A stretch of DNA of 64,000 nt, from positions 1 to 64,000 of the IMG/VR virus record IMGVR_UViG_3300032116_000062, one strand, 5' to 3'. Made by a program: the position numbers and the translations under genes. The DNA comes from a virus. The notes under the pieces were generated by a model. It saw nothing but the letters and a program-made list of their open reading frames with translations, searched no databases and was not told the DNA's origin. Positions 35,601 through 63,792 of this stretch are shown here, piece by piece; the first letter of the stretch is position 1; every line of letters starts with the position of its first letter.

Positions 35601-38364
35601 GACTTCCGCTATAATGAATGCAGCTGAGGCCTCTGTTGAACTGACTGTTACACATACGGATAGTGAAGGAACTGTGGGGCAGACAAAGACTATAATAGTT
35701 AGAGCCACAAAAGTCAATACAGGTGCAAACGGATCAAATGGTTCAAATGGTTCACCGGGTGCAAATGCGGTAAGCATACAAATAAATCCACCAACACAAA
35801 CTATAACAAAATCAAATACAGGAACATATTCAGCGGTATCTCCTTTTACGGTTTTAGTAACAGAAACGGGCTCACTTTTAACATACGTTAGTGGTAATCC
35901 AACTTTAAATAATGGTGAATTTAAAATAACAAACGTATATAGTGGAAGTGGTATAACAAATGGTAATCCGGCAACATCAAATACAATAACACCAATATCA
36001 CCAACAAGCGTTGCACCATATAATACAACATTTGGTGTAACATATAAAAATTCAATTGGTATAGAATCCGTTACCATCCCATTTTCTCATAGTGTTATTA
36101 CAGTTTTAGATGGACAAACAGGACCAGGAGTCGTATTTACTGGAGTTTGGGAATCGGGCAGAGCATATCAATTTAGTTCAGGTGCCGGTACGGGCAGGAG
36201 AGATGTGGTATTATGGAGTACATCGGGTACCGCACCATACGATACATATTATGCTGCCATTAGACAGCACGTATCTGCGGGTGGTAATGTGGCTGATGGT
36301 GCTCCGCATCAAGGAAATCAAACTGGTTGGGAAAGTTTAGGCACACAAGATTTCTTTGTGGCTGCGAAAATAGGTTTGTTTGAAGAATCGTATGTACAAA
36401 ATACTTTAAACGTTGGTACTAATAATAATGGTGGAGTATCAACTGCGAATATTACATTGGCAGGTGGTACGCAATATCCATATATTTCATTGGGACAGAC
36501 TGTGCAAGGAGTTTATAATGCCGATGGAATTTATATAGGTAATGATAGTGGTAACTATAGAATGTCATTAAAGGGTGCGAATGGTGCATTGGCTTGGGAT
36601 GGTTCAAATTTAAATGTAAGTGGTGCAGTAAAAGCAACAAGTGGTGATTTTGAAGGATATATGACAGTTGCCGGCGGTAGTATGAAAATAGGAAAGGATG
36701 TCCAAAGTACAAACGATGGAATATACATTAATCCAAACAACTATTGGTATTCTAATGGTAATTTTAAAGCAGGTGGTGATGCGGGATATATGAGTTTTGA
36801 TGGAACTACCTTATTTGTATCCGGAGCAATATCATCATCCGAAGGTAGTTTGGGTGGTTGGAAGTTAACGGATTCTGCAATATATAGAGGAACAATCGGT
36901 TCTGATGATTCATTTACAAGTAATGGTGGTGATATAACATTGGGTAGTGGTTGGATATCGGCAAAGGAGTTTAGAGTTAATTCTGCAGGTAATGCGTTCT
37001 TTAGTGGAAGTATCACAGGTGGTAGTATTAATATAGGAAATGGTAAATTTATTGTGACAACTGCTGGAACTGCCACTCTTTCTGGATCAATTCATACTAC
37101 CGGCGGAACAATTGGTGGTTGGGTCGTTGATGGTGCGGTGTTGAGAGATGTTAATAGTAGAATACTTTTAAATCCCGGAACACCGTCAATTGATATTTAC
37201 GATACATCTAATGTCAAAAGATTGACTATGAAGTATGGTTTATTGACATCTGTAAACTCATCTGCAACAATTACAATAGATCCACCATCACATTCCCCAT
37301 CTTATGAAAGAATATTTAGTGGAGATGGTGAAAGAAGAAGTGGAACTTATAATTCTTTTTATGCATCCGAAGCGGGTACATATACAGGAACATATACTTA
37401 TGTAGCGGTTAATAGTGTTGCTACCACAGGACCAGCGTGGAGTGGATATTTTTCCGTATACAGATATGTGTTGATAACGGATAGTAATGATATTCCTATT
37501 GCAACTATTTCTGCAGGCGGTGATTCTGCATTTAGTAATAATGAAACTTTAAATCTTGTTGGAGGTTCTTACACATTTTATTTGACCATACCGGCGGCCG
37601 GCACATATAGAGTATATTCTGTATTAGAATATATCGCATATCCAAGTAGTTATGGATCCGGTGTATATGTGGATATAAATGCAAATAGTTGGAATGATTC
37701 ATCTTTTAATGGAAATATACAGCTTAATATAGCGGAAATTTCGGATGATGGATTTCAGGTAATTTCATCTGCAAATAGTTATTGTATAATAAAAAGAGGT
37801 GGAGTATATGCTATAGAAGCAAAAGGTGGGTTACTTATAGAAGGTAATGGAGCCGAATTATATATGGCCGGCAAAGTTCATCCATTGGTGGGTAATACAC
37901 ATGATTTAGGATCAACTGGTAATAGATGGAAAACGGTTTGGACTAATAACGCATTAAATACTACATCTGATGAACGATTTAAAAATTCAATTGAAGATAC
38001 TGATTTGGGTTTAGAATTTATCAATAATTTAAGACCAGTAAAATATAAAAATAATGCGGCTACTACTCCAAGATATCATTATGGATTGATTGCACAGGAA
38101 ATAATATCCACATTAAATGATTTTGGAAAAACAACTGATGATGTTGGATTTATTGCAAGTGCATCGGTTAACTACACCGTAGCAGAAATAGAAGAACTAA
38201 AAACCAAACCGCATTGGAGTTCAATTGAAACAGAAATAAGTGCATCCATACGACAAGAATTGGGATTATCATATACCGAACTATTATCTCCTATGATTAA
38301 AGCAATACAACAATTATCTGATAGAGTTTTGGAATTAGAAGCAAAAATAAGTGGTTCTATATGA
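32632..38364 (+). CDS. tail fibre/receptor-binding protein with C-terminal intramolecular chaperone (peptidase S74-like)
   Basis: collagen-like GANGSNGSNGSPGAN (35722-35766); Gly-rich beta repeats (GSLGGW, GTIGGW); TSDERFKN...GLIAQE...LSPMIKAIQQL chaperone from 37966. Confidence 0.85.
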   Translation: MAILKKTLFPEDLEKYKVLIEDTDPDSRYFRISELDDTFTGGKNAFLIQGSEELVADTIVKIEIKDSLGNIIYHEPGEGIPEYYEGVSKVVAVYIYPDTLFGPCTITILGELKEYETINGLKVPVPFEWQNKYNVRWQKTVNVNPLLSNTTKVRFYRRPKVDITESILPIYNRSVDRKTISGSVDGIAISPIEGEDYKSFKGILQYNLEITNNANLSQSMEGEIITINGLSKEYSPTITDITTNKKCLVNIPYYITSSFYPNYESVTSFASASYTMSYDEQILFTNSNVSSSFARIKITDLETFAGDASRIKIYAKSRNSLGDYELLEDIQLESNELLITDEFNNELNVRTGIFSQQILDNFWVTQSLESVVNLSLDNELLFQSAKLERSSPISSSTGLFKFYSSQSLDFTKFTEYQLDFTPLLSSSDGLAKIEIYASGSAFVDTDVATDNGKLLGSIETTKNFTRFDKQQINFNPDSNGTGNLVFLVKNGDWQISNIALRAAEESSFSPNEVTLIANVPTRINNETFDFRVEIYDINNNYIPVKIEKSYTFTGGNDLLINRNLEVNVSNNSFNFNTASAFPSTILIDYFKTALTGAVSFYSSAVDTTGAEITIGDLNPSTNYPGFLIDVDSDTKQLTLENFTASLASKTVGAIYYTASCENINRYFTIFRIDQGAPSYLFYATADKNNFTFNPDYYYKSVVDNDYIDIRLVQQNLPAILPPNSLSIYSASLSGPIVGGGKYTAPLHYVGGIGNASIYRLYVTSSAHQSYPTGDGYYFDLGQSTYDFELVTSDGTFTSSVTVDAIERGATAPIINISNENVSLPATSTGVIAPAAYSATTGSISVKVVDRTINYASPITNDAFSASVKQSSGVSGANINSNAQYSITQLNSDSGSITLEIEYKNSRGSSSLFEKEINYIKNKNAVPNVMIVATPQAQAVLADQYGTQAGTLSNVTIDALEGNTSRFTSMVIASTSGFSTPPTVSGQTLTMTSAIMNAAEASVELTVTHTDSEGTVGQTKTIIVRATKVNTGANGSNGSNGSPGANAVSIQINPPTQTITKSNTGTYSAVSPFTVLVTETGSLLTYVSGNPTLNNGEFKITNVYSGSGITNGNPATSNTITPISPTSVAPYNTTFGVTYKNSIGIESVTIPFSHSVITVLDGQTGPGVVFTGVWESGRAYQFSSGAGTGRRDVVLWSTSGTAPYDTYYAAIRQHVSAGGNVADGAPHQGNQTGWESLGTQDFFVAAKIGLFEESYVQNTLNVGTNNNGGVSTANITLAGGTQYPYISLGQTVQGVYNADGIYIGNDSGNYRMSLKGANGALAWDGSNLNVSGAVKATSGDFEGYMTVAGGSMKIGKDVQSTNDGIYINPNNYWYSNGNFKAGGDAGYMSFDGTTLFVSGAISSSEGSLGGWKLTDSAIYRGTIGSDDSFTSNGGDITLGSGWISAKEFRVNSAGNAFFSGSITGGSINIGNGKFIVTTAGTATLSGSIHTTGGTIGGWVVDGAVLRDVNSRILLNPGTPSIDIYDTSNVKRLTMKYGLLTSVNSSATITIDPPSHSPSYERIFSGDGERRSGTYNSFYASEAGTYTGTYTYVAVNSVATTGPAWSGYFSVYRYVLITDSNDIPIATISAGGDSAFSNNETLNLVGGSYTFYLTIPAAGTYRVYSVLEYIAYPSSYGSGVYVDINANSWNDSSFNGNIQLNIAEISDDGFQVISSANSYCIIKRGGVYAIEAKGGLLIEGNGAELYMAGKVHPLVGNTHDLGSTGNRWKTVWTNNALNTTSDERFKNSIEDTDLGLEFINNLRPVKYKNNAATTPRYHYGLIAQEIISTLNDFGKTTDDVGFIASASVNYTVAEIEELKTKPHWSSIETEISASIRQELGLSYTELLSPMIKAIQQLSDRVLELEAKISGSI

Positions 38365-39347
38365 TAGTTTTTATTACAACAGGTTACGGAAAAAATGTTA
38401 TAGGTGGTTCGGATATTTGGTGTAATAATTTTATCGAAAATGTTATTCCATTATTAAAGTCCGAATATAAAATAATAGTAGATAATAGGCCTTTACAAAA
38501 AGATGAAAATATTATATACACATGGCAAAATGATGAAGAAGTTGATTCTATTTTAGAAAAATGTGAAAAAATAATATTTCTACACCATTCATATAAAGAA
38601 AACCCTATAATTAAAAAGTGGTTACATAAAACGTATCTTACATTTGTTCATGCTTTTATTCCAGATATGGTAGGTTTAAAGGATGAATACGAAAACCTAA
38701 TGACCCGATTAGATTGGCATTGGCAGAAGGATATTTTAGATAACTCTGAAAATATAGTTTGGATTGGTTATGAAAATGATACTATTCACACATATTATCC
38801 ACAAACAAAAACTGTTACAAATTATTATGAATGGAAAAATAAAAAACCATTTACAGAAATAGTTAATAACAGAATAGGTTATGCGGCAAGATGTGAAACA
38901 CGAAAGAATGCGGATTATTTGGATTCATTACCTGCATATGTTTTTTCAAATGAATATGATTATAAACGAATGTTGGAAGCATCAAAAATAAATTCAGAAT
39001 TTCATATATTTCAAAAATTTGATTATAAATTTCATCAAACATTTTTTAATAAAAATTTTCAAATATTCCACGCAGCGTATACAAAAGAACCGTTTGGTTA
39101 TGCAATATTTGATGCAATAGATAATGGTAAATTACCTATAATAGATTCTCATTGGATGAAAGGAATTAAGTACAGATATAGAGCAATGAATAAACAACAA
39201 TTTCACTACCAATGGTTACGGATATTGGAAGATGGTTTTGAAAAAAATAAAAAACAATTTGATAGATTGAAAGCAGGACTTGAAAAATACACAGATAAAC
39301 AAAAATGGGTTTCAGAAATATGCAGTTACTTAACGAAATACTTATAA
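38361..39347 (+). CDS. glycosyltransferase, GT-B fold (GT4-like)
   Basis: N-terminal GGSD; R.ETRKN; EPFGYAIFDA variant of the E-x7-E motif. Confidence 0.65.
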   Translation: MIVFITTGYGKNVIGGSDIWCNNFIENVIPLLKSEYKIIVDNRPLQKDENIIYTWQNDEEVDSILEKCEKIIFLHHSYKENPIIKKWLHKTYLTFVHAFIPDMVGLKDEYENLMTRLDWHWQKDILDNSENIVWIGYENDTIHTYYPQTKTVTNYYEWKNKKPFTEIVNNRIGYAARCETRKNADYLDSLPAYVFSNEYDYKRMLEASKINSEFHIFQKFDYKFHQTFFNKNFQIFHAAYTKEPFGYAIFDAIDNGKLPIIDSHWMKGIKYRYRAMNKQQFHYQWLRILEDGFEKNKKQFDRLKAGLEKYTDKQKWVSEICSYLTKYL

Positions 39348-40096
39348 AAGAATATTTAACTAACAATCCCATACCGGATGAATCGGGAGTAGTTAAGTAT
39401 GAGCCTGTAAAATATAGATGGTCACATGGCGCAACCGATACTCATTTGGGTGATGGTTTATTAGTATATTCTTTGATAATGATGAACCGTGCAAAAGTAT
39501 GTGTCTGTATTGGTAGTGGTGGTGGGTTTATTCCACGTATAATGACGCAGGCGAGAATGGATTTGTGGGAACAAAAAATATTTGATGGAAATCCTGCAAA
39601 AGAATGGGGTGATATAGGAACAACGATTATAATTGATGCGGCAAATGGAGTTGGTGGGTTTACTGATTGGGTGGATGAAAATAGTTTTTTGAGAAATCAC
39701 TACTCACCGCAAGTTATTTTAAATACATCTGAAAGAGCTTACTATGATTATTTTGTAAGGCAAGATATAAAAATAGATTATTTACATATAGATGGTGATC
39801 ATTCCTATGAAGGAGTTAAAAAAGATTTTGAACTATACTCAACAATTATGTCAGAGAACGGAATCATTACTATACATGATACGGATCAAAAATACCATGA
39901 TACATTCTTAATCCCCAATAATCAGTTAGATCATTTTGATTCTTTTGATGGGCCCGCAAAATTTATAAATGAATTAGAAAATAATACTGAATGGAATTTG
40001 GTAAATTTAAAAAATTTCATTATGTTTGATTCAAAAAGACCGACAACTACTGGTATAGCTATAGTTACAAAAAAGAATAATAAAAAAAGTGAATAA
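39320..40096 (+). CDS. class I SAM-dependent methyltransferase (Methyltransf_24-like)
   Basis: CIGSGGG; IDYLHIDGDHSYEGVKKDF...GIITIHD. Confidence 0.85.
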   Translation: MQLLNEILIKEYLTNNPIPDESGVVKYEPVKYRWSHGATDTHLGDGLLVYSLIMMNRAKVCVCIGSGGGFIPRIMTQARMDLWEQKIFDGNPAKEWGDIGTTIIIDAANGVGGFTDWVDENSFLRNHYSPQVILNTSERAYYDYFVRQDIKIDYLHIDGDHSYEGVKKDFELYSTIMSENGIITIHDTDQKYHDTFLIPNNQLDHFDSFDGPAKFINELENNTEWNLVNLKNFIMFDSKRPTTTGIAIVTKKNNKKSE

Positions 40097-40946
40097 AAAA
40101 ACAATAAGATTAGTAACTATCACAGGATCTAGAACAAACACTCTACGACATATGCTGCAGCACTATAATGCTTTGGTAGATGAAATTTTTGTTGTAGTTT
40201 ATGAATGGGAAGGATTTAGTACCTATGAATCAGTTTTAGAAATAGTAAATGAATTTCCAAAAGCTAAAATTATTAAAAAAGTTACAAAAGAAAAATATAA
40301 TTGGGAATACGTTACAGAACTATATAATGAAATAAAAAACTTATATCCAAAAGATTGGTGGATAGTATCTGATGATGATGAATTTCATATTTACTCAAAT
40401 AATTTAGATGAAATAATATCAGATTGTGAAGAATTTGGTTGGGATATGGTCCGTGGTGGTTTTATAGATAGAATCGGTATAGATGGTGAATTTGTAGAAA
40501 TACAAAAAAATAAAAATATATTTAAGCAATTCCCAATGGGTGGATTTTTTAGATACCCTATGAGTGGTGCATGTCCAAATAAAGTATGTATTATGAAAGG
40601 GTATATACAATTAACACCCGGTCAACACTACGCAATTATAAACGGACAAACTACTTGGAGATGGCAAGGGTGGAATCATCCGTTAATAGCTCCTGTGGAT
40701 AGATACAACGTACAGGTACATCATTTTAAATGGGATAGTACGTGCTCTGATAGAATAAGAGATGTAGCATCTATAAATAAGGATTATGCGTATTCAGAGG
40801 AATATAGAAAAATGTATAAAGAATTAGCAAAATCCAGATTTGTTATAGATATAAATAACGAAGATTATATGTTTGAAAATATTGGTGATAGTATAAGTGG
40901 ATATTCAAAATGGAATAAACTTTTAAATAAAATATTATCAATATAA
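40089..40946 (+). CDS. glycosyltransferase family 2-like (GT-A)
   Basis: HY..LVDEI, WWIVSDDDEFH DxD motif, GQH, HHFKW. Confidence 0.7.
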   Translation: MNKKTIRLVTITGSRTNTLRHMLQHYNALVDEIFVVVYEWEGFSTYESVLEIVNEFPKAKIIKKVTKEKYNWEYVTELYNEIKNLYPKDWWIVSDDDEFHIYSNNLDEIISDCEEFGWDMVRGGFIDRIGIDGEFVEIQKNKNIFKQFPMGGFFRYPMSGACPNKVCIMKGYIQLTPGQHYAIINGQTTWRWQGWNHPLIAPVDRYNVQVHHFKWDSTCSDRIRDVASINKDYAYSEEYRKMYKELAKSRFVIDINNEDYMFENIGDSISGYSKWNKLLNKILSI

Positions 40947-41002: not shown

Positions 41003-41212
41003 ATGGCAGTCACTAAAAAAAATGAAGAAAGAGATCAAGAAATTTTACTCCTTGAAACCAGAAAAGTAAAGGCTTTAGAAAAAATAGCCAATTCATTGGA
41101 TGCGTTGACGATTTGGTTTGAAGAAATCGAAAAAGATGAATGGAGTGAAAGACTTCAATGGTATCTTTATGAATGGCATTCTAAAAAAATTGCAGGAGAT
41201 AAAGAAAAATAA
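41003..41212 (+). CDS. small hypothetical protein
   Basis: 69-aa ORF after the promoter, coupled to the next gene. Confidence 0.6.
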   Translation: MAVTKKNEERDQEILLLETRKVKALEKIANSLDALTIWFEEIEKDEWSERLQWYLYEWHSKKIAGDKEK

Positions 41213-42642
41213 TGCAAAAACAAAAATTAGGAATAATTGTTCCCTATCGTAATAGGGGTGAACACTTGTCTCAATTTTTGTTGACGATAAAAAAATATTT
41301 ATCGAACACCGATATAAAGTATGAACTAATAATAGTAGAACAAGCGGATGATAAACCTTTTAATAGAGGAAAACTACTAAATATAGGTGTAAAAAAAGCA
41401 ATTGAATTTGGATGCAAGTATGTAGCTCTACATGATGTGGATATGTTGCCCATTGATGTAGATTATTCTTATGTCCATAGACCTACACATTTAGCTACAA
41501 AATTTATTTCTGATAATACTGAAAAAAATATAGTATTTGATGAGTACTTTGGTGGTGTAACTTTATTCCCTATAAATGAGTATTTAAAAATAAATGGATA
41601 CTCTAATGAGTATTGGGGATGGGGGTATGAAGATGATGATTTGCTTTTTAGATGTAAAGAAAATTCTTTAGAATTAGATACAAAATATTATCCTGTAAAA
41701 ACACGTAATACGGCTGGATTATATTTTAACGGAAAAGATAGTTATATAACATGTCCAAAACCATTTGGATTGGATAACTATACAGTATTCGCATCCTTCG
41801 AACCTGATGAAATAAAGTGTGATGAAAATTATGAGTTTGATGAATATGTGGTATTTTCTATACCAGGATATGATACAACGATAACATATAATTCATTTAA
41901 AAGATATAAATTTGAAACTTGGTCAAAATCAAAAAATGTATTTAGTTTAAAATCTAGCATTGCACCAAAATTAAGAACAGTCATAGCGGTCACAGTAAAC
42001 CAATACGATAGGATAATAAAACTATACCAAGATGGTGTATTGGTCGATTCCCTAGAAATAGATTCAAAGGAAAGATTAATGCCTTACTTTAATCAGGAGT
42101 TTTTTTATATAGGAAAAACCACTACATCCGAATTTAATAGTAGACGACCATTCAAAGGAACAATAGATTACTTTGCAATATTTAATCACAGTTTAGAAGA
42201 AGCGCAGATAAAAGAAATATCAAATAATAGATATATGGGCCTGACTGATAACTATGGTGATTATATTACTTCACATTGTTTGGAAGTTTGTTATGACATG
42301 AAGATAAGTAAAAAAGATAAATTGATAGATTTATCTTCAAATAATAATGATGCTATTATAAATAATTGTGAAAGAGTTCCTGTTGTTGATATTGATATGA
42401 TAACGGAAATAAAGATTCCTTGGAGAAAAGCCGGAACTTTTAAATTATTACCACATAAGGAAAATGGATTTTTTGAAAACAAATGGACATTTACCGAAAC
42501 AAGAAAAAATCAAATAAAATTTTATAACGATGTGTTGGGAGGAAAAACAAACTGGAGAAGAGATGGAATGGATACATTGAATTATAAAGAAATAAGTTAT
42601 ACAGACATGAAAGATTACCACTATTTATCAGTATCATTATGA
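41212..42642 (+). CDS. GT7 (beta-1,4-galactosyltransferase-like) with inserted LamG domain
   Basis: IIVPYRNR, FNRGKLLNIG, HDVD, YFGGV, NGYSNEYWGWGYEDDD; LamG (FKGTIDYFAIFNHSL); GT7 tail resumes (LLPH...DG..TLNY). Confidence 0.88.
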   Translation: MQKQKLGIIVPYRNRGEHLSQFLLTIKKYLSNTDIKYELIIVEQADDKPFNRGKLLNIGVKKAIEFGCKYVALHDVDMLPIDVDYSYVHRPTHLATKFISDNTEKNIVFDEYFGGVTLFPINEYLKINGYSNEYWGWGYEDDDLLFRCKENSLELDTKYYPVKTRNTAGLYFNGKDSYITCPKPFGLDNYTVFASFEPDEIKCDENYEFDEYVVFSIPGYDTTITYNSFKRYKFETWSKSKNVFSLKSSIAPKLRTVIAVTVNQYDRIIKLYQDGVLVDSLEIDSKERLMPYFNQEFFYIGKTTTSEFNSRRPFKGTIDYFAIFNHSLEEAQIKEISNNRYMGLTDNYGDYITSHCLEVCYDMKISKKDKLIDLSSNNNDAIINNCERVPVVDIDMITEIKIPWRKAGTFKLLPHKENGFFENKWTFTETRKNQIKFYNDVLGGKTNWRRDGMDTLNYKEISYTDMKDYHYLSVSL

Positions 42643-45525: not shown

Positions 45526-46271
45526 GCATAAACATCAATACAAATAATTTATATTTGATATTACCATCAAATGTATCATTTAAAGAATCTAATATATCAG
45601 ATTCTATGCAAGGTGATTTTACTTTATTCGCTAGAGTAAAATTGGATAAAGAAAAAATAACAGAAAAAGAAGCATTTATCATATCAAGAAGTGGAATGCA
45701 TTCTGGTATATCGGTATTTAAAAATGAAATAGGAAAGGTATTTTTACAATACACATATTGGTTTGAAAACCCGGAAGATAAAACAAATTCTATAAAACAA
45801 ATCCACATAGAATTACAAGATTCTATGTTTGAAGATTTTATAGATGTTTATATGACAAATAGTGATGATAAATCAAAGATAACCTGTCATTTAAACGATG
45901 AAATAGTTGGAAGTATGATTTATGCTGGATTAGATAAAGTAAATTATACAGATTCCCCATATTGGTTTGGGTGTGGTAGTATGTTTACCGAAGAAGATGC
46001 GAGAAGCATAGGTGATTTTGAATATCATATTGTATTTTCGGTAAGTAAAAAACTTACAATGTTACAAATAAAAGATTTAGTAGAAAATTATGATAAAAAA
46101 TATACTAAAATTATTTTTGAAACATATAAAGTGTTTAACTCCGATTTATCTTTTGCAAAAGATTTTGCATTTTTTTGTGATTTCGATGTAACAAATAGAT
46201 ACAAAGTTTGGAATTATGCATTCAACGGAAACTACCCACAAATTTATATAGAAGGCAACGTATATTATTAA
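45522..46271 (+). CDS. hypothetical protein, probable LamG/concanavalin-like fold
   Basis: beta-rich; DFTLFARV, YWFGCG and DF...WNYAFNGN resemble LamG patterns. Confidence 0.45.
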   Translation: MSININTNNLYLILPSNVSFKESNISDSMQGDFTLFARVKLDKEKITEKEAFIISRSGMHSGISVFKNEIGKVFLQYTYWFENPEDKTNSIKQIHIELQDSMFEDFIDVYMTNSDDKSKITCHLNDEIVGSMIYAGLDKVNYTDSPYWFGCGSMFTEEDARSIGDFEYHIVFSVSKKLTMLQIKDLVENYDKKYTKIIFETYKVFNSDLSFAKDFAFFCDFDVTNRYKVWNYAFNGNYPQIYIEGNVYY

Positions 46272-55357: not shown

Positions 55358-57277
55358 ATGAAAACAGTTATAAAACCTTGGGGAAAGGAAGAATGGTTAG
55401 AATTAAACGACCGATATTGTTACAAACGAATTTACATTAATGCCGGATATAAGACATCATATCAGTATCATAATTTTAAAAAAGAAACAAATTATATCAT
55501 TTCGGGCGAAGCAGAAGTGTGGCTTGAAAATGATGAGGGTGTTGTTGAAAAAAAATTAATGAAGGCGGGTGATTACTTTAATGTAACACCACCAAAAAAG
55601 CACAGAGTAATTGCATTAACTGATATTATTTTACAAGAAGTATCAACGCCTGAAGTTGATGATGTCATTAGAATTAATGATGAGTTTGCAAGGGGTGATG
55701 GTAAAATAGAAGGTGAACACCAAACACCCGCTGTATTAATATTGGCAGCAGGTTTGGGTACCCGTTTGGAATCTCTTACAAAAGAAATTAATAAAGCACT
55801 TTTACCAATTAACAATCGTGCAATCATTTCACATATTATTGATAAGTTTCCAAAAGATTATGAATTTGTAGTAGCAATTGGATATAAGGGTGAATTGGTT
55901 AAAGAGTATTGTAAATTAGTATTTCCCAATCATAAATTTACGTTTGTGGAAATCGATAACATTGAAGAATCAGGATCAGGCCCAGGATATTCCGCATTAA
56001 AATGTAGAGAGTATTTGCAAAGACCTTTTTATATTACCACTTGCGATTGTTTGATAGATTCTCCAATGCCACATTTGGATGGTAATTGGTTGGGAGTACA
56101 ACCAACTTCTTATCCAGAAAAATATTCAACGGTATTGGTAGATGGAGATAATATTATAAATTATTCAAACAAATCCATACATGGATATAATTTGGCATTC
56201 ATTGGGCTGGCTGGTATATGGGATTACGAAGTATTTTGGAATAAATTAGAAAGTAGAACCATCAATGGAGAGTTAGTATCGGCGTTTGAAGCACCATTAG
56301 ATTATCCTACGTTTAAAATAAAAAAATTAAAATGGTTGGATACAGGTAACATAGATGATTTAAATAAAGCAAAACAATACTTTAACGATGTACCATTATC
56401 ATTACAAAAAGATAATAACGAACTAACATACAGAGAAGGTAATTTATTTATCAAATTTACACCCGATCCAGAGGTATTAAAAAATAGAATTAAAAGAGCA
56501 ATTCTATTGAAAGAGCAAATACCTTTAAACTTTGGATCCGTTTCAAATTTCATTTATTACGATTGGGTAGATGGTGATACTTTATACGAATTGGATGATT
56601 TTAATCTATTTAAACGATTTCTAAACAAAATGGAAAATAATTTAAAAGAGATTACAGATAATTCCATTGAACATATAATAAATTTTTATATAAATAAAAC
56701 ACATAGTAGAGTACAAAAATTTGTAAATAAAAATGGACATCAATATCACACCTTACCGCATATTATAAATGGAAAAGAATATCCGGCATATGATTCTTTT
56801 TTTACAGATGTTGTAAATAATAGGTTTCATAAATTTCAAAGTAATTCTTTTTATAAAAAATTTCATGGAGACCTTCAATTTGACAATATCATTTTTTCTT
56901 CAAAAGAAAATGAATTCAAATATATTGATTGGAGAGAATCTTTTGGAGGATATACGGAGGCCGGAGATATTTACTATGATTTAGCAAAACTATATGGTGG
57001 GTGTATAATTCCGTATAATAAAATGAAAAATGAAGATAATATAAACTTTGTAGAATGTGATTGTTCTATAAGATATTCATATGATATTTCCGATAATTTG
57101 GTTTCCTTTAAAAAGGAATTTGAAAATTGGATTATCAAAATGGGATTTGATATGGATAAAGTAAAAATTATGACAGGTTTAATATTTTTAAACATGTCAC
57201 CACTACATGATGAAAAGTTTTCAAAAATGCTATGGTTCAAATCAATTGAAATTCTATATGAGTACGCAGATAAATAA
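55358..57277 (+). CDS. trifunctional cupin + sugar-phosphate nucleotidyltransferase + APH/choline-kinase-like protein
   Basis: KPWGKE...SYQYH..K.ET...H cupin; ILAAGLGTRL...KALLPI NTP transferase; FHGDLQFDNI, IDWR and YDLAKL kinase motifs. Confidence 0.85.
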   Translation: MKTVIKPWGKEEWLELNDRYCYKRIYINAGYKTSYQYHNFKKETNYIISGEAEVWLENDEGVVEKKLMKAGDYFNVTPPKKHRVIALTDIILQEVSTPEVDDVIRINDEFARGDGKIEGEHQTPAVLILAAGLGTRLESLTKEINKALLPINNRAIISHIIDKFPKDYEFVVAIGYKGELVKEYCKLVFPNHKFTFVEIDNIEESGSGPGYSALKCREYLQRPFYITTCDCLIDSPMPHLDGNWLGVQPTSYPEKYSTVLVDGDNIINYSNKSIHGYNLAFIGLAGIWDYEVFWNKLESRTINGELVSAFEAPLDYPTFKIKKLKWLDTGNIDDLNKAKQYFNDVPLSLQKDNNELTYREGNLFIKFTPDPEVLKNRIKRAILLKEQIPLNFGSVSNFIYYDWVDGDTLYELDDFNLFKRFLNKMENNLKEITDNSIEHIINFYINKTHSRVQKFVNKNGHQYHTLPHIINGKEYPAYDSFFTDVVNNRFHKFQSNSFYKKFHGDLQFDNIIFSSKENEFKYIDWRESFGGYTEAGDIYYDLAKLYGGCIIPYNKMKNEDNINFVECDCSIRYSYDISDNLVSFKKEFENWIIKMGFDMDKVKIMTGLIFLNMSPLHDEKFSKMLWFKSIEILYEYADK

Positions 57278-57899
57278 AGATACAAAAATATACGGATCAT
57301 TTTCTAAAACACCCGGAAATAATGGGTGTTTGTTTTTCAATGCTGCATTTGAAAAGTATAATATAAATGCTATATATAAATCTTTTTATTCTGATAACAT
57401 AAAAGAAACCATACAATCCGTCAGACATTTGGGATTTAGTGGTTTTGCATTGAGCATGCCACATAAAGTTGATGTAATACCTTATTTGGATTATATGGAT
57501 GATATATCTAAAGAAATAGGTGCGGTTAATACTGTGATAAATGTGGAAGGTAAACTTACAGGATATAACACAGATTTTTTTGGAATTGTTGATTTTTTTT
57601 CTTATATTAACGTAGGAAAAAATGTAAATATAATTGGAAATGGTGGTTTTAGTAAAGCAATACAATGTGCTTGTAAAAATATGAATATAGAATATAAAAT
57701 ATTTGGAAGAAATGATATAGATAATATATCTTCGATACTGAATGAAACTTTTATAAACGCTACTCCAATTGAAATAAAATCAATTTATAGTAGGGTAATA
57801 GATTTAAGACCACATACACATTATGGAAAAATAGTTGCCGAAATGCAAGCAAAATATCAATTTAAAATATACACAGGAATAGAATATGGCACTACCTAA
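57258..57899 (+). CDS. shikimate dehydrogenase-like protein (SdhL/HI0607-type)
   Basis: INKDT N-terminus, SMPHK, GAVNTV, GYNTD, GNGGFS, INATP. Confidence 0.8.
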   Translation: MSTQINKDTKIYGSFSKTPGNNGCLFFNAAFEKYNINAIYKSFYSDNIKETIQSVRHLGFSGFALSMPHKVDVIPYLDYMDDISKEIGAVNTVINVEGKLTGYNTDFFGIVDFFSYINVGKNVNIIGNGGFSKAIQCACKNMNIEYKIFGRNDIDNISSILNETFINATPIEIKSIYSRVIDLRPHTHYGKIVAEMQAKYQFKIYTGIEYGTT

Positions 57900-58854
57900 T
57901 TACTACATATGCCCAATGTCCAAAAATATAGTAGATTCTGTAATAGAAATGGAAAACTCTGCTTTTGGATTACTACCAACTCGCAGACAGATAGACTGGG
58001 ATGGTGGATATGTAAATGGTTGGAATACTAAAAGTTTTTATGAGTATGTAAAAACTAAAAATAAAAATCTTATAATAGAAAGAGATCATTCCGGCCCAAA
58101 CCAAGGAGTGAATGAGGATAGTGGGTATGTAAGTCATACTCATGATGCAAATTATTTTGATATAATACATTTAGACCCATGGAAAATTGCAAAAAATCAT
58201 ATTGATGGCATAGAAAAAACTGTTTATGCTTTAAAATACATTCATCACCTAAATCCAAATGTTAAGTTTGAAATATTGACGGAAGAGGCGATATGGAAAT
58301 TTACGGATGAAGAAATAATAGATATAATGCAATATCTACTAAATAACTTATCCAAATCGGAGTTCGATAGTATCGAATATATTGTAGTACAATCGGGAGT
58401 AGGATTGGATTTGGTTAATAGAAAAAATACAGGAAAATTTGATTTAGAAAAGTTAAAAAAACAATCCTTTTTAATAAAATCATTTGGTAAAAAAACAAAA
58501 GAACATAATGGTGATTATTTGAACCATAATGAATTGGGAATTCGATTTTCAAATGGATTGGATTGTATAAATATAGGACCTGAAATAGTGCAGTTAGAAA
58601 CTCTAACTTATTTAGAAAATATGACCGAAAAACAAATAGATGAATTTTATGAAATATGCCTAAATTCAAGAAAATGGAAAAGATGGGTCCCATCTGATTT
58701 TGATTTTTCGGATAAGAAAAAACTAATACAAGTTTGTGGGCATTATTGTTTTAATCTATACGAATTACCAAAAATAGATGATTTAATAAAAGAAAATATT
58801 AAAATAAAATTAAAAAATTTACCATCATGTCAAAAATCTTCGCGTTTGATTTAG
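57886..58854 (+). CDS. GatZ/KbaZ-like TIM-barrel sugar-phosphate epimerase/aldolase
   Basis: RQID..GGY, RDHSGP, IHLDP, VQSG, EHNGDY and NIGPE, matching the GatZ motif order. Confidence 0.7.
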   Translation: MALPNYYICPMSKNIVDSVIEMENSAFGLLPTRRQIDWDGGYVNGWNTKSFYEYVKTKNKNLIIERDHSGPNQGVNEDSGYVSHTHDANYFDIIHLDPWKIAKNHIDGIEKTVYALKYIHHLNPNVKFEILTEEAIWKFTDEEIIDIMQYLLNNLSKSEFDSIEYIVVQSGVGLDLVNRKNTGKFDLEKLKKQSFLIKSFGKKTKEHNGDYLNHNELGIRFSNGLDCINIGPEIVQLETLTYLENMTEKQIDEFYEICLNSRKWKRWVPSDFDFSDKKKLIQVCGHYCFNLYELPKIDDLIKENIKIKLKNLPSCQKSSRLI

Positions 58855-59186
58855 ATGATACTTTGTGTTATAGACCAAAGGATGTTGAACATTTGGGTGG
58901 AGATAAATACCACCATTGTAAACCAATAAAAGAAATGATAGACCTATCTAATAGTTTATATGATAAAGGTCACACTATATATATTTATACGGCTCGTGGT
59001 ATGAAAACATTTGATGGCGATGTAAAGTTAATATATGAAAAACTATATGATTTAACTTTAAAGTGTTTGGATGAGTGGGGTGTAAGACATCATGGATTAT
59101 TTATGGGTAAAATTCATTATGATTTACTTATAGATGATAAAGCAATGGATTTGGAAACAGCAAAAAAAGAATTAATAAAAATATGA
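58827..59186 (+). CDS. HAD-family phosphatase (capsule-biosynthesis type)
   Basis: FDLDDTL, YTARG, GK..YD..IDDKA. Confidence 0.85.
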   Translation: MSKIFAFDLDDTLCYRPKDVEHLGGDKYHHCKPIKEMIDLSNSLYDKGHTIYIYTARGMKTFDGDVKLIYEKLYDLTLKCLDEWGVRHHGLFMGKIHYDLLIDDKAMDLETAKKELIKI

Positions 59187-60154
59187 AAGTCCTAATTACA
59201 GGAGGTGCAGGTTATCTGGGTTCTGTTATTGTCGGAAAATTATTAGAATACGGATACGATGTGGTTGTTTTGGATAAATTACTATTTAACCAAACATCAT
59301 TACTTCAATATACATCGAATCCAAATTTTAAATTTATTTATGGAGATGTTCGTAATCAAATAGAATTAGAAAGATTATGTAATGAATCTGACATAATTAT
59401 TCCATTGGCAGCAATTGTTGGATTTCCGGCATGTGCATCTGATCCTAAATTGGCAAAAGAAATTAATTACGATCAGATTGTTAATATTGTAAAATATACA
59501 ATTGGAAAAGGTAAAAAAATATTATATCCAAATACAAATAGTGGATATGGTATTGCAGAAGGTCAATCCGAGTGTACCGAAGAATCACCACTTACACCAA
59601 TATCAGTATACGGACAAACAAAATGTGATGCAGAGAATTTTTTAAGAGTATCAACGGATGCAATTATTTTTAGATTAGCAACGGTTTTTGGAGTATCACC
59701 AAGAATGAGAACGGATTTATTGGTAAATGATTTTACTTACAAAGCGATAACGGATAAGTACATAGTAGTATTCGAAAAATCATTCAAGAGAAATTTTATT
59801 CATATAGAAGATGTTGCATCTGCATTTTTATATATGATACAAAATTATGATAAATATAAATCCCAAGTTTTTAATGTAGGTTTGAGTACTGCAAATCTAT
59901 CAAAGCAGGAGTTATTAGAGAAGATTCAGGCCCATGTAAACGACTTTGCAGTATCTTATAATGATTACTACGAAGACCCGGATAAAAGAGATTATATCGT
60001 TTCTAACGCAAAAATAGAATCGACAGGTTGGAAACCAATGTGGGATTTGGATATGGGAATTAAACAATTGATTCAGGGGTATCAAATGATAGTTCCCAAA
60101 ATGGGAGCAGAATTCAGAAATGGATTCCCATTGGGTTACGCAAATAAAACATAA
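59183..60154 (+). CDS. NAD-dependent epimerase/dehydratase (extended SDR)
   Basis: TGGAGYLG, YGQTK, RLATVFGVSPRMR. Confidence 0.9.
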   Translation: MKVLITGGAGYLGSVIVGKLLEYGYDVVVLDKLLFNQTSLLQYTSNPNFKFIYGDVRNQIELERLCNESDIIIPLAAIVGFPACASDPKLAKEINYDQIVNIVKYTIGKGKKILYPNTNSGYGIAEGQSECTEESPLTPISVYGQTKCDAENFLRVSTDAIIFRLATVFGVSPRMRTDLLVNDFTYKAITDKYIVVFEKSFKRNFIHIEDVASAFLYMIQNYDKYKSQVFNVGLSTANLSKQELLEKIQAHVNDFAVSYNDYYEDPDKRDYIVSNAKIESTGWKPMWDLDMGIKQLIQGYQMIVPKMGAEFRNGFPLGYANKT

Positions 60155-60155
60155 T

Positions 60156-60710
60156 ATGAGTTATAAAGACAAAAAATGGAATGATATTGAGGTATCATTC
60201 TTAAAACCATTTGCATGTGAAGTGCCTGTATTTTCACCATCCGTTTACAGAGAGTATAGAGGGGAAATATGGACAACATACCATAGTGAAATACATCCTG
60301 TTATGGATTACATACACTATGATAAGGAAGAAATCAACATTCACGGTAGATTTTCCAAATCATACAAAGGTGTGTTGCGAGGATTGCATTGGGATACAAA
60401 GACTTGGAAATTAGTACAAGCTTTAGTTGGTGATATATTTTTGGTTGTATTGGATATGAGAAAAGATTCACCTACATATGGTGATTGGAATTCATTTTTA
60501 TTAACAGAAAAAACTAGAGACCAAGTTTTAGTTCCTCCTGGATTTGCAAATGGACATTACGCATTAACCGATTGTGTATTTCATTATAACTTATTTTATA
60601 AAGGAGATTTTGTTGAAGAAAATGCACAAAATGTGGTTAAGTGGAACGATCCAGAATATCAAATCGAATGGCCAACCGATAAACCAATATTACAAAAAAG
60701 AGACAGATGA
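60156..60710 (+). CDS. rmlC: dTDP-4-dehydrorhamnose 3,5-epimerase family (RmlC)
   Basis: GVLRGLH, KLV..LVG.IF.V.LDMR..SPTYG, VPPGFANGH, WNDP..I.WP. Confidence 0.85.
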   Translation: MSYKDKKWNDIEVSFLKPFACEVPVFSPSVYREYRGEIWTTYHSEIHPVMDYIHYDKEEINIHGRFSKSYKGVLRGLHWDTKTWKLVQALVGDIFLVVLDMRKDSPTYGDWNSFLLTEKTRDQVLVPPGFANGHYALTDCVFHYNLFYKGDFVEENAQNVVKWNDPEYQIEWPTDKPILQKRDR

Positions 60711-61336
60711 TAAAAAATTTAGAAAAATATCCAGTAGTAAGAGAATCAGAGTATACAGTCGATTCTCTTATTGATTTTGAAAATTTAATAGTAAAGCACT
60801 GGGAGACCGGAAAAATAAAAGGACCCGTACACCTATCAAACGGAAATGAAGAACCACTTATTGAAATATTTAAAAGAATAAAAAAATCGGATTGGGTTTT
60901 TAGTACTTGGCGTTCACATTATCATATACTACTGAAAGGAGTATCTCAATCGTGGATAGAAGAACAAATTGTTAAAGGAAAATCCATTACATTGTGCAAT
61001 ATTGATGAGAAGTTTTACGCATCTGCAATTGTAGGTGCAACTCTTTCAATTGCATTAGGAACGGCACTATCTATTAAAAGGTCAGGTGGTGATGATAAAG
61101 TTTGGGTATTTGTTGGAGATATGAGTTTTGAAAGCGGTATTTTTTATGAGGTTCATAAATACGCTAGAAACTTCGACCTTCCTTTGTATTTTGTAGTAGA
61201 AGATAATGGTGTTTCAACGTACACACCAACCGAAGTAACATGGAATGTAAAACGTGAAATTCCTGAAGATGTAATTTGGTATGATTATAAATCAAAATAT
61301 CCACATTATGGAAGTGGAAAATGGATAGCATTTTAA
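60707..61336 (+). CDS. ThDP-dependent enzyme, E1-alpha-like (diphosphate-binding) subunit
   Basis: GPVHLS.G.E, STWRSH, GDMS...EDN ThDP motif; only 209 aa. Confidence 0.85.
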   Translation: MIKNLEKYPVVRESEYTVDSLIDFENLIVKHWETGKIKGPVHLSNGNEEPLIEIFKRIKKSDWVFSTWRSHYHILLKGVSQSWIEEQIVKGKSITLCNIDEKFYASAIVGATLSIALGTALSIKRSGGDDKVWVFVGDMSFESGIFYEVHKYARNFDLPLYFVVEDNGVSTYTPTEVTWNVKREIPEDVIWYDYKSKYPHYGSGKWIAF

Positions 61337-61338
61337 TT

Positions 61339-62271
61339 ATGAAAAAAGTATTAATAACAGGATGTAGTGGATTGGTAGGAATCCATTTGGTAAAAAAGTG
61401 TTTGGATAAAGGATATGCTGTTGTTGGTGTGGATATTAGATATTCCGATAGTTTACCAATTTCAGATAATTTTACCTTTTACCAACTAGATTTAACAATC
61501 GAAGATAACATAAAAAACCTTTTCTTTTTTGAAACCCCTGATGTAGTTTTTAATGCATTCGGTGTAAAAGGTTCACCAATGAGAGCAAAAAATAATCCAG
61601 TTGATTTTTTATATCCATCTTTTAAAATCAATACGGAAATTATTAACCAATGTGCTAAAAACAATATTTGGTTGGTTTTTGTTAGTTCGGTTGGAGTATA
61701 TGCACCGGCGGAAAAGTTTGAAGAAGAATCCGTTTGGAAAACATTACCATCCAATGCCGATTGGTTTCCTGCATGGAGTAAACGAATGGGTGAGTTACTT
61801 TTACAATCATACGAAGTACAAACTGGATATAATAAATGGTCTATTATAAGGCCTGCAAACATATTCGGGGAATATGATGATTTTAGTGGAAACGGAACGG
61901 TCATAGCATCTACCATAAAAAAAGTTTATGATGCAACCGATTCCATCGAAGCTTGGGGTGATGGATCACCTATTAGAGATTTTGTTTATGCCGGAGATGT
62001 CGCGGATGCGATTATAGATTTGTATCAATATCAGTATCACACTACTATAAATTTTGGATGTGGAGAAGAGATAACCATCAAAGAAATTATAGAAATGGTT
62101 GTAGAAATTAGTGGTAAAAAAATTGATATAAATTGGGATACATCTAAACCAAACGGAGATAAAAGACGACAGATGGATATAACAAAACAAACAAAATATA
62201 AGATTTTACCAAAAATGGGGATAAAAGAAGGAATTAAAAAAACATATAAATTTTATGAAAAAAACAGATAA
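61339..62271 (+). CDS. NAD-dependent epimerase/reductase (GDP-fucose synthase-like, atypical)
   Basis: TGCSGLVG, RPANIFG, WGDGSPIRDF; PAWSK in place of YxxxK. Confidence 0.85.
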   Translation: MKKVLITGCSGLVGIHLVKKCLDKGYAVVGVDIRYSDSLPISDNFTFYQLDLTIEDNIKNLFFFETPDVVFNAFGVKGSPMRAKNNPVDFLYPSFKINTEIINQCAKNNIWLVFVSSVGVYAPAEKFEEESVWKTLPSNADWFPAWSKRMGELLLQSYEVQTGYNKWSIIRPANIFGEYDDFSGNGTVIASTIKKVYDATDSIEAWGDGSPIRDFVYAGDVADAIIDLYQYQYHTTINFGCGEEITIKEIIEMVVEISGKKIDINWDTSKPNGDKRRQMDITKQTKYKILPKMGIKEGIKKTYKFYEKNR

Positions 62272-63250
62272 AATATTAGTAACGGGAGCAAGTGGATTTA
62301 TAGGATCCAGATTACTTAAATCATTAATAGAAGCAGGATATACGAATATTAGAGCAGTTACCTATAAAAGAAATTTAACTAATGATATCCCAAATATAGA
62401 AGGTAATTTTGAACATTATAAGGGAGATTTGACAGATGCTAAATTTTGTGAAATAGTATCGAAAGAGGTGGATGTTGTTTTTCATTGTGCGGCAAATACC
62501 ACAAATGCATTGGATACAAAAGTAAATCCATTATTACATGTAACTCAAAATGTAGAAATGAATGTAAATCTAATGGAACAATCTTGGAAAAATAATGTTC
62601 GTAAGTTTATGTTCATATCATCAAATACGGTTTATCCAAATATAGGTAGTGAGTATTGTACTGAAGATATGGAAGTACAAACACCGAATATATATCCGGC
62701 ATATAAAGCAGTTGGTAATATGAAACGATACGGAGAAACACTTTGTGATTTCCTATCCAATCATATTCATAATCCAATGCAATGTATCATCATCAGACCT
62801 TCCAATGCGTATGGTCCAAATGATAAATACGATTACGAAAAATGCCACGTTACTCCTGCAAACATTCGTAAGGTAGCAGATGGGTTAAATCCAATACCTG
62901 TTTGGGGTGATGGAAGTGAGATTAGAGATATTATTCATGTAGATGATATGGTAAGTGGATTTATTTGCGTAGCAGAAAACGTAGATAAATACGATGTTTA
63001 TAATGTGTGTTATGGTAGAGGATATTCGGTAAATGAAGTACTAAATACCATAAAAGAGATTGAACAAAATTCTAACCCAATCGAATATGTTAGTAATAAG
63101 GCACCAATGATACCTGTTAGACTACTTTCGAATGATAAACTTCTTAAATTGGGATGGAAACCGAAGTACGATTTAAAAACAGGATTAAAAGATGCACTAA
63201 ATTGGTATAAAGCAAACAAACATTTATTTAACCCAAATTCAAAACCATAA
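62255..63250 (+). CDS. NAD-dependent epimerase/reductase (GDP-fucose synthase-like, atypical)
   Basis: TGASGFIG, RPSNAYGPND, HVTPA, WGDGSEIRD; VGNMK in place of YxxxK. Confidence 0.85.
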   Translation: MKKTDKILVTGASGFIGSRLLKSLIEAGYTNIRAVTYKRNLTNDIPNIEGNFEHYKGDLTDAKFCEIVSKEVDVVFHCAANTTNALDTKVNPLLHVTQNVEMNVNLMEQSWKNNVRKFMFISSNTVYPNIGSEYCTEDMEVQTPNIYPAYKAVGNMKRYGETLCDFLSNHIHNPMQCIIIRPSNAYGPNDKYDYEKCHVTPANIRKVADGLNPIPVWGDGSEIRDIIHVDDMVSGFICVAENVDKYDVYNVCYGRGYSVNEVLNTIKEIEQNSNPIEYVSNKAPMIPVRLLSNDKLLKLGWKPKYDLKTGLKDALNWYKANKHLFNPNSKP

Positions 63251-63792
63251 TGAGTAAGCCGGAATATACACCATATAAAGATGCATTATCAAATGCAATG
63301 AAATTATTAGGAGAAAAAGATGATACTATATTTATAGGACAGCAGATAGTTTATGCTGGCAATCCTATGAGTACAACGTTAGGAGATGTATCGAAGGAAA
63401 AAATGGTAGAACTACCTGTTATGGAAGAAACCCAAATGGGAATGAGTTTGGGAATAGCAATGACACAAAAAACGGTTATTACATTTTATCCTCGCTGGGA
63501 TTTTATAATATGTGCAGCAAATCAATTGATAAATCATATTGATAAATACGAATTGATGACAGGAAAAAAAGCAAATATACTTATTAGATTAGGAAAAGGT
63601 TCGGATAAACCATTAGATCCTGGACATCAGCACAAAGGAAATTATTTTGAAGAATTTAAATCTATGTGTAAAAATATAACCTTCCACAATTTAGAAAAGT
63701 GGGAAGATATAGAACCTGCATACGAACTCGCATACCAAACGGGTGGAGTACATTGTTTAGTTGAATATCCAGAATTATACTATAAAAATTAA
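63250..63792 (+). CDS. ThDP-dependent enzyme, E1-beta-like (pyrimidine-binding) subunit
   Basis: FIGQ, ELPVMEETQMG...G.A, DF...A.NQLINH, GHQH; lacks the C-terminal domain. Confidence 0.85.
   Translation: MSKPEYTPYKDALSNAMKLLGEKDDTIFIGQQIVYAGNPMSTTLGDVSKEKMVELPVMEETQMGMSLGIAMTQKTVITFYPRWDFIICAANQLINHIDKYELMTGKKANILIRLGKGSDKPLDPGHQHKGNYFEEFKSMCKNITFHNLEKWEDIEPAYELAYQTGGVHCLVEYPELYYKN

Follow-up and report, generated by a model that had tools for sequence, protein, structure and literature searches.

A tail-fibre-linked glycan island in an uncultured freshwater giant phage: a possible virion glycosylation system

The first 64,000 nucleotides (nt) of a single viral contig of 102,380 bp (IMGVR_UViG_3300032116_000062; hereafter the window, whose coordinates coincide with those of the genome up to 64,000) contain an island of glycan-related genes that begins at the very end of a tail fibre gene (38361-63792, + strand). 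We propose that this island is a soluble, late-expressed glycan assembly line that glycosylates the virion, and we put the odds of this reading at about even (roughly 0.5). A preliminary description of the DNA had also proposed a soluble pathway acting on virion proteins. The soluble, self-supplied assembly line, whatever its acceptor, is well supported by the predicted genes. The virion as acceptor is our best inference, from the apparent co-transcription with the fibre gene, transferases that seem largely restricted to viruses, the lack of a match to the ThyA family, the hypervariability of the fibre-linked locus, and a weak signal from a sequence motif.

The island holds 27 open reading frames (ORFs) of 119-639 amino acids (aa), numbered g01 to g27, plus one ORF of 68 aa (Table 1). 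The preliminary description had noted an ATGA shared by the fibre gene and the first glycosyltransferase gene, followed by about 25 kb of tightly packed, co-oriented genes, and both points hold. The fibre stop (38362-38364) overlaps the g01 start (38361), and 17 of the 26 ORF junctions overlap while 6 are separated by 1-4 nt and the remaining three by 22, 53, and 265 nt. The motif ATATTTAT(A) is a candidate late promoter of this lineage: it lies 12-68 nt ahead of a dozen gene starts, chiefly those of virion or large fibre-like genes, and 15 of its 27 copies in the genome are outside ORFs (non-ORF DNA makes up about 3% of the genome). The copy before the fibre gene reads ATATTTATA. No intergenic copy lies inside the island (the next one after the fibre's is at 63932, before the gene for a 1366-aa protein), and a terminator scan of 32000-51900 gave none on the + strand. 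The island and the fibre gene apparently form one transcription unit and would be expressed together, late in infection. The motif is unlike the T4 late promoter TATAAATA, which is not enriched (32 found versus 24 ± 4 expected), and sigma-70-like sites are fewer than in shuffled sequence.

As to the genes themselves, the preliminary description had listed a GT-B glycosyltransferase, a GT2-like enzyme, two GT7-LamG enzymes, four KIAVCxSGQxR proteins, a DUF5672-like protein, a TEK-motif protein, a methyltransferase, four SGNH-like proteins, a radical S-adenosylmethionine (SAM) enzyme, and a nucleotide-sugar supply. We agree on the GT7-LamG enzymes (g04 and g05), the KIAVCxSGQxR proteins (g08, g09, g10, and g17), the DUF5672 protein (g12), the methyltransferase (g02), the radical SAM enzyme (g06), and the sugar supply, which falls into two modules (g18-g21 and g22-g27). 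Four other entries stand in part. The GT-B assignment of g01 is backed by a motif and a neighbouring protein-atlas cluster (93% Glycos_transf_1, score 0.97; the neighbouring clusters are all viral) and lacks a Pfam match; the GT2-like assignment of g03 comes from a weak Pfam match below the cut-off. The TEK-motif protein, g15, has its motif and 274 homologues, none with a Pfam domain, and its AlphaFold2 model gave no usable fold (predicted local distance difference test, pLDDT, of 49). The SGNH-like proteins (g11, g13, g14, and g16) share G[DC]S and D..H-like blocks and match one another in profile alignments with hhalign (g13 to g11 at E = 2.5e-5, g14 to g16 at E = 2.3e-9), with no match to SGNH or Lipase_GDSL Pfam models and none in PDB sequence searches.

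The GT7-LamG enzymes match both halves of the GT7 family well above threshold (60-74 bits versus cut-offs of 23-27), and both retain the D[VI]D, WGxEDDD, and LPH motifs (DVD, WGYEDDD, and LPH in g04). The radical SAM protein matches NCBIfam NF033640 at 355 bits (cut-off 170) over profile positions 2-398 of 398. Searches of 50,697 GenBank phage records with tblastn found no match for the GT7-LamG protein g05 or for the DUF6071 protein g11. A literature search found no mention of DUF6071 and only an unrelated mention of DUF5672, which we take to be a putative glycosyltransferase-like family. PDB profile searches with g01, g08, g11, g13, and g15 gave nothing significant.

The KIAVCxSGQxR proteins are true paralogs by blastp. 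An AlphaFold2 model of the family (pLDDT 92.9) has a GT-A fold, and Foldseek returned 83 matches at E ≤ 1e-3 with GT-A enzymes on top, including GnT-I, LH3, B3GalT5, and glycogenin (all at about 1e-4) as well as SpsA. With VIA-align, the scores were Z = 11.1 for Mnn9 (root-mean-square deviation 3.3, 180 residues aligned), 10.5 for ColGalT1, and 10.1 for SpsA; Mimivirus R699 (Z = 9.5) and PBCV-1 A064R (Z = 8.6) fall within the general GT-A background. Three acidic residues are invariant (D131, D139, and D182). Nucleotidyltransferases share the modelled fold, so the paralogs are putative transferases. The family appears to be largely virus-restricted: it has 278 relatives in IMG/VR, and the atlas clusters nearest to g08 are 89-100% viral.

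The first of the two supply modules is g18-g21. The nucleotidyltransferase part of the three-part protein g18 matches RmlA (9.6e-15), LicC (5.5e-10), and an HddC-like enzyme (1.5e-9) in the PDB; its kinase part is assigned from the HGDLQFDN..IDWR motif alone, and its cupin is confined to the copies of this lineage. The other three members are recognised by Pfam (g19, 1.2e-16), by PDB entry 2fiq (g20, 1.2e-11), and by phrog_1238 (g21, 7e-24). The second module, g22-g27, reads as a deoxy- or branched-sugar nucleotide module, with a thiamine diphosphate (ThDP) enzyme split into E1-alpha-like and transketolase-pyr-like halves.

The contig (31.6% G+C, rated 54% complete, with all plausible genes on the + strand) has a T4-like myovirus backbone, including a gp6-like baseplate wedge upstream of the island and, downstream of it, the 1366-aa protein, a large terminase, a portal, and a gp23-type major capsid protein. 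The capsid protein shares 52-54% identity with its counterparts in Flavobacterium phage immuto, Microcystis phage Mel-JY01, and a 484-kb uncultured phage, and capsid relatives are encoded by at least 592 IMG/VR stretches (the 80 best are 78-97% identical). The source is an abundant, uncultured lineage of freshwater giant (jumbo) phages. One relative, G006 (238,219 bp, rated 100% complete, capsid 85% identical), is collinear with the contig, which is also syntenic with more than 10 other assemblies. The concern that the island is host DNA joined by misassembly is excluded because it is bordered by phage genes at either end, and independently assembled contigs as well as a complete genome show the same arrangement. 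A megablast search with 19.6 kb against the GenBank phage records found no match. We considered the Ralstonia jumbo phage RsoM2USA, the only GenBank phage with a radical SAM match (38%), as a cultured model, but its locus shares just the radical SAM and a weak short-chain dehydrogenase/reductase (SDR) with the island, so it is a poor model.

The synteny check suggested by the preliminary description gave a graded picture. Close relatives (L003-L006, 60-98% identity) carry the entire island. G006 retains g01-g03, g07, the radical SAM, and the deoxy- or branched-sugar genes, and has three GT7-LamG genes; it lacks g08-g21 and its fibre gene is unrelated, while both flanks are conserved (50-93% identical). 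The island is thus a hypervariable, mosaic locus, its proximal part fixed in the lineage and its distal cassettes exchangeable. In particular, g01 is kept in L003-L006, L071, and G006, and the g22-g27 module in G006, L008, L018, and L077. (G006 also has a second, divergent g01-like GT-B gene, 32% identical, at 214878-215846, far from the island and past its Ser/Thr-rich fibre genes.)

We placed all contig proteins on 73 IMG/VR loci that were retrieved via the GT-A family. At least 45 of them, on contigs of 24 to 452 kb, have nine genes in a fixed order: radical SAM, GT-A, GT-A, DUF6071, g13-type SGNH, nucleotidyltransferase-kinase, shikimate-dehydrogenase-like, GatZ-like, and NodU-type carbamoyltransferase. 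Homologues of g06 occur in 59 of the 73 loci and homologues of g11 in 53. In 30 loci the carbamoyltransferase and the GT-A genes are no more than 10 kb apart, and the former typically comes right after the g20 homologue. In the present phage the gene lies about 30 kb upstream of the island, and it was probably displaced, as elsewhere it typically closes the glycan cassette. For most of the cassette proteins, neither a PHROG family nor a GenBank phage relative was found. Among the genes that flank the cassette in other lineages, none had a Pfam match besides a UDP-glucose dehydrogenase and an HNH protein.

The cellular relatives of the island point to a split between its transferases and its tailoring enzymes. 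About 70 of 80 genomic loci with the radical SAM are from Bdellovibrionota, often with tandem copies, and in a sample of 301 Bdellovibrionota genomes the radical SAM was found in 68 and a weak match to the GT-A family in 3. No member of the g08 family lies within 10 kb of 70 bacterial radical SAM loci. Homologues of g18, g19, and g20 share one Bdellovibrionota chromosomal locus with GT4 genes, three radical SAMs, and two GDSL proteins. The phage therefore has its tailoring and supply chemistry in common with bacteria, and its transferases look largely virus-restricted. As a side observation, the NF033640 radical SAM is expanded in this phylum, with up to five copies per genome (loci L078-L144). 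Another apparently cellular locus, L077 (VHCC01000006.1, 23 kb), was binned as Pelagibacterales and is a phage-type island with a radical SAM (77% identical), GT7-LamG, and g22-g24. It is probably mis-binned phage DNA and could be a hint at the phage's host.

How might the island work? The gene content, folds, synteny, mosaicism, and absences are what the sequences show; the reaction order, the sugar products, and the acceptor are proposals. Both supply modules would draw on central metabolites. Using its isomerase, GatZ-like enzyme, dehydrogenase-like enzyme, phosphatase, anomeric kinase, and nucleotidyltransferase, g18-g21 would probably convert a sugar phosphate to an unusual nucleoside diphosphate sugar, and g22-g27 would make a 6-deoxy, possibly two-carbon-branched, sugar nucleotide. 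About nine or ten soluble proteins with transferase folds (the GT-B g01, the GT2-like g03, the two GT7-LamG enzymes, the four GT-A paralogs, the DUF5672 protein, and perhaps g15) would then build an oligosaccharide, which may be tailored by methylation, by O-acylation or de-acylation (the four SGNH-like proteins), by carbamoylation, and by radical SAM chemistry. The likeliest acceptor would be a phage-made protein on the particle's exterior, namely the fibres and perhaps an insertion domain of the capsid protein. The lectin-like LamG domains would help to place the enzymes, either on the fibre or on the glycan as it grows.

Several observations favour the virion as the acceptor. First, the island adjoins structural genes, being located between the fibre gene and the 1366-aa gene and terminase block, and in G006 both the island and the fibre differ from those here while the flanks are conserved. 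Second, no machinery for a lipid-linked glycan was recognised with the models tried. As the preliminary description had claimed, the island has no Wzx, Wzy, or multi-pass membrane protein: in a hydropathy scan of its proteins, only the E1-alpha-like g24 and the SDR g25 had single marginal segments. Pfam models for Wzx (Polysacc_synt) and for Wzy or ligase (Wzy_C) had no match in the contig or in G006 (ABC transporter families were not profile-searched). Initiator models (Bac_transf and WecA/MraY-type) likewise had no match in the contig or in any of the genomes G000 and G006-G009, with controls positive in 9 and 12 of 14 genomes. Third, the ThyA family (PF00303) had no match in the contig or in G006. 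The ThyA fold includes the known dCMP and dUMP hydroxymethylases, so the classic route to glycosylated DNA appears to be missing. Fourth, there are precedents for virus-encoded virion glycosylation, in mycobacteriophages (Freeman 2023, as summarised in PMC12619734) and in the fibrils of Megavirinae (PMC10117803).

A further piece of evidence, which we consider weak, is the motif [ST][GAS]S. Relative to within-protein shuffles, it is enriched only in the fibre, the capsid protein, and neighbouring virion proteins (z = 3.0-12.7), and in no enzyme. In the capsid protein, the sites fall in the central, variable part of the sequence; the lineage conserves three of them, and immuto and the 484-kb phage, relatives that lack the cassette, have none of the three. 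(This comparison used lineage capsids from IMG/VR, as the closest island-bearing fragments have no capsid gene.) Two giant proteins encoded after the neck genes have the highest density of the motif; Ser and Thr make up 31-32% of their residues, they contain many short coiled-coil segments (SlyX/DUF16-type matches), and they may be whisker- or fibritin-like fibres.

Other considerations weigh against the virion as acceptor. The two proteins with the strongest [ST][GAS]S signal are segmented coiled-coil fibres, so their Ser/Gly linkers may be structural, and the capsid protein of Mel-JY01, which lacks the cassette, has 5 of these motifs versus 6 here. Most O-antigen glycosyltransferases are peripheral and have no membrane segments, so the phage could borrow the host's initiator, flippase, and ligase, and the absence of these genes leaves room for a host-surface target. 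The promoter motif was inferred from position only, and copies within the coding sequence of the island could be active. Also, g01, g03, g15, and the SGNH set were assigned by motifs or sub-threshold matches. Finally, the lineage is uncultured and the system is known here from genes alone.

The alternative that survives best is that the phage remodels the host surface. The transferases would modify undecaprenyl-linked intermediates of the host's O-antigen or capsule at the inner face of the membrane, and the host's flippase and ligase would export the product, either to block superinfection or to keep progeny off debris. Similar fibre-linked clusters of pelagimyophages and cyanomyophages, rich in glycosyltransferases and radical SAM genes, have been interpreted in this way (PMC7029224). 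The island does contain nucleotide-sugar synthesis and glycosyltransferase genes as O-antigen and capsule loci do, and its RmlC, SDRs, and HddC-like nucleotidyltransferase are typical of O-antigen loci; the Bdellovibrionota chromosome with the radical SAM, GDSL, and nucleotidyltransferase set beside GT4 genes fits as well. However, the complete genome G006 has no match to an initiator, flippase, polymerase, or ligase model, and the transferase families occur almost exclusively in viruses instead of being common to bacterial surface-glycan loci. Many unrelated phages, on contigs of 24-452 kb, carry the core cassette, a distribution that better fits a host-independent acceptor, and apparent late co-expression with the fibre fits superinfection exclusion poorly. 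On balance we consider a host-surface target unlikely. If it is correct, the phage would possess a serotype-conversion system of unusual size that is expressed late.

The product could instead be a free or secreted glycoconjugate or a pseudo-oligosaccharide small molecule, such as an inhibitor of competitors or of host functions. Aminoglycosides and cyclitols are tailored by similar enzymes: a twitch radical SAM (BtrN), an O-carbamoyltransferase (TobZ), and a shikimate-dehydrogenase-like enzyme. Radical SAM, carbamoyltransferase, shikimate-dehydrogenase-like, and kinase-nucleotidyltransferase enzyme types were all confirmed in the cassette, which travels as a compact unit among unrelated phages. 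We nevertheless find this improbable: no sugar-phosphate cyclase, aminotransferase, or exporter was seen (the ABC families were not profile-searched), the nine or ten transferase-fold proteins and the lectin-like domains suggest a larger, macromolecule-bound glycan, and the island sits inside the virion gene block. Lastly, a glycan on modified bases of the phage's own DNA, for restriction evasion, is very improbable: phage glycosyltransferases are known to attach between one and several sugars to DNA (Pyle 2024, cited in PMC12619734) and a 2-oxoglutarate (2OG)-Fe(II) oxygenase is encoded upstream (6306-6848), but the 100%-complete relative has no ThyA-family match, the island is in the structural block rather than in a nucleotide-metabolism block, and the number of transferases, the O-acyl enzymes, and the lectin domains go far beyond any known DNA glycan.

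Within the virion reading, we tentatively suggest something more specific, which is possible rather than probable: that the island is a phage "serotype" system, in which largely virus-restricted glycosyltransferases, supplied with exotic sugars of the phage's own making, would lay down a branched, carbamoylated, O-acylated, and radical-SAM-tailored coat on the fibres and capsid. The coat would differ from one close relative to the next as bacterial O-antigens do, and the portable nine-gene cassette would carry the trait to unrelated large aquatic phages.

Table 1. Features of the island and of the surrounding contig (window coordinates unless marked as genome coordinates)
Feature	Position	Strand	Basis or remark
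g01, probable GT-B (GT4-like) glycosyltransferase	38361..39347	+	no Pfam match; motif and atlas neighbour
g02, SAM-dependent methyltransferase	39305..40096	+	Methyltransf_24 3e-10, above cut-off
g03, possible GT2-like (GT-A) transferase	40089..40946	+	Glyco_tranf_2_4 E 0.0018, below cut-off; syntenic in 8 loci
68-aa helical ORF inside the 265-nt gap	41003-41211	+	stop overlaps g04 start; no PHROG
g04, GT7 galactosyltransferase-like with nested LamG	41212..42642	+	GT7N 1e-20, GT7C 1e-16, Laminin_G_3 2.5e-11
g05, second GT7-LamG enzyme	42639..44102	+	31% identical to g04
g06, radical SAM, N-terminal twitch-like Cys cluster	44107..45525	+	NCBIfam NF033640
g07, stand-alone LamG-like protein	45522..46271	+	hhalign to GT7 LamG inserts 96.4%, E 1.2e-9
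g08, g09, g10, tandem GT-A-fold paralogs	46273..48918	+	KIAVCxSGQxR N-terminus; invariant YD..K.R.D
g11, DUF6071, SGNH-like	48972..49856	+	Pfam 1.3e-13; GDSW block I, WHPSP..H block V
g12, DUF5672 protein	49853..50626	+	Pfam 1e-10
g13 and g14, SGNH-like proteins	50611..52192	+	block I GDSF and GCSY
g15, 482-aa orphan family	52176..53624	+	FE..F....K.LTEK motif; homologues without Pfam domain
g16, SGNH-like	53627..54430	+	GCSW block I, RD..HPG block V; profile match to g14
g17, fourth GT-A-family paralog	54427..55335	+	32% identical to g08 over 326 aa, 4e-37
g18, isomerase-like cupin, sugar-1-P nucleotidyltransferase, APH/choline-kinase-like kinase	55358..57277	+	Pfam, NCBIfam
g19, shikimate-dehydrogenase-like N domain; g20, GatZ/KbaZ-family sugar-phosphate enzyme; g21, HAD-type phosphatase-like	57207..59186	+	
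g22-g27, three SDR epimerase/dehydratases, RmlC-type 3,5-epimerase, split ThDP enzyme	59183..63792	+	Pfam
Tail fibre, 1910 aa, C-terminal Peptidase_S74 intramolecular-chaperone domain	32632..38364	+	Pfam PF13884 1.9e-10
Late-promoter-like motif ATATTTATA	32611..32619	+	21 nt before fibre start
ATATTTAT(A) before gene starts	12558, 19127, 24576, 32611, 63932; genome 71014, 73944, 81890, 82977, 87137, 90125, 95876		
NodU/CmcH-type O-carbamoyltransferase	8650..10353	+	phrog_1601 5.5e-120; among baseplate-side genes
gp6-like baseplate wedge	13531-15555	+	upstream of island
384-aa multi-pass membrane protein	3612-4766		no Pfam or PHROG family
UvdE, 2OG-Fe(II) oxygenase, peptide deformylase cluster	4806-7692		upstream of baseplate genes
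1042-aa SbcD-SbcC/Rad50-like fusion	29250-32378		between tail genes and fibre
1366-aa protein	genome 63944-68044		L001:144-4244; follows island
Two giant Ser/Thr-rich proteins	genome 87193-90063 and 90193-94833		L002:4813-7683 and 7813-12453; after neck genes

Some neighbouring genes deserve mention in their own right. The 1366-aa gene that follows the island is conserved in L007 and G006, and the protein has one hydrophobic segment near residue 1267. We did not count it as a member of the glycan system; only an NMNAT-like or cytidylyltransferase-like N-terminus was recognised. The contig's only multi-pass membrane protein (384 aa, with at least four hydrophobic segments) is kept in the lineage, and in two large contigs (L015 and L050) it is encoded about 5 kb from a GT-A family gene. 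The UV endonuclease UvdE is clustered with the 2OG-Fe(II) oxygenase (P4H-like family PF13640) and a peptide deformylase. Finally, a single 1042-aa ORF encodes an SbcD-like phosphoesterase joined to an SbcC/Rad50-like ATPase.

If the island does glycosylate the virion, then complex, self-made glycan coats would be common in abundant aquatic phages, beyond the giant viruses of eukaryotes and a few actinophages, and would affect adsorption, stability, grazing, and host defence. The nested GT7-LamG enzymes, the GT-A family, the DUF6071-type SGNH proteins, the g15 family, and the radical SAM with its N-terminal twitch, which predatory Bdellovibrionota also have, are unstudied families that may also hold new sugar chemistry.

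The closest known systems are the host recognition clusters of pelagimyophages and cyanomyophages (Zaragoza-Solas et al. 2020, PMC7029224), which combine tail fibres with many glycosyltransferases, lipopolysaccharide-type sugar genes, and radical SAM cassettes. That study named GT8 as the most represented glycosyltransferase family and proposed modification of the host O-chain. The present island is likewise a large, hypervariable, fibre-linked glycan region between conserved modules of a T4-like aquatic myovirus, with gradual divergence through gain and loss of cassettes. It differs in belonging to another lineage and in its GT7-LamG enzymes, largely virus-restricted GT-A family, and DUF6071-type SGNH proteins. 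Also, in contrast to the host O-chain interpretation, the absences and the virus-restricted transferases here favour an acceptor that is made by the phage.

For mycobacteriophages, virus-encoded glycosylation of the virion is established (Freeman 2023, as cited in PMC12619734). The present island resembles these systems in that phage glycosyltransferase genes lie beside structural genes. Their systems reportedly consist of one to a few glycosyltransferase genes, with the glycan on the C-termini of capsid and tail tube proteins, in siphoviruses that infect an actinobacterial host. The present island, in contrast, has about 28 genes, with full sugar-nucleotide pathways and heavy tailoring, known from the genes alone. 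Megavirinae such as Mimivirus have virus-encoded, self-sufficient clusters that make rare bacterial-type sugars for the fibres of their particles (PMC10117803), and, as here, cluster content differs between close clades. However, those viruses infect eukaryotes and use other sugars and enzyme families, and the island shares with them only a generic similarity of the GT-A fold.

At the level of single enzymes, g04 and g05 resemble the animal beta-1,4-galactosyltransferases (CAZy GT7), as they match both GT7 halves and have the DxD, WGxEDDD, and His motifs intact. They also resemble the lectin-bearing polypeptide GalNAc-transferases, in which a GT-A catalytic domain is paired with a lectin-like domain. 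Unlike in either group of animal enzymes, the LamG domain of g04 and g05 is nested within the catalytic domain, not appended to it, and the enzymes are encoded by a phage. Overall, fibre-linked glycan islands of T4-like aquatic phages and virus-encoded virion glycosylation are already known; what is new here is the enzyme families, the nine-gene cassette that is shared across lineages, the split between virus-restricted transferases and tailoring enzymes that bacteria have too, and the absences in a complete genome.

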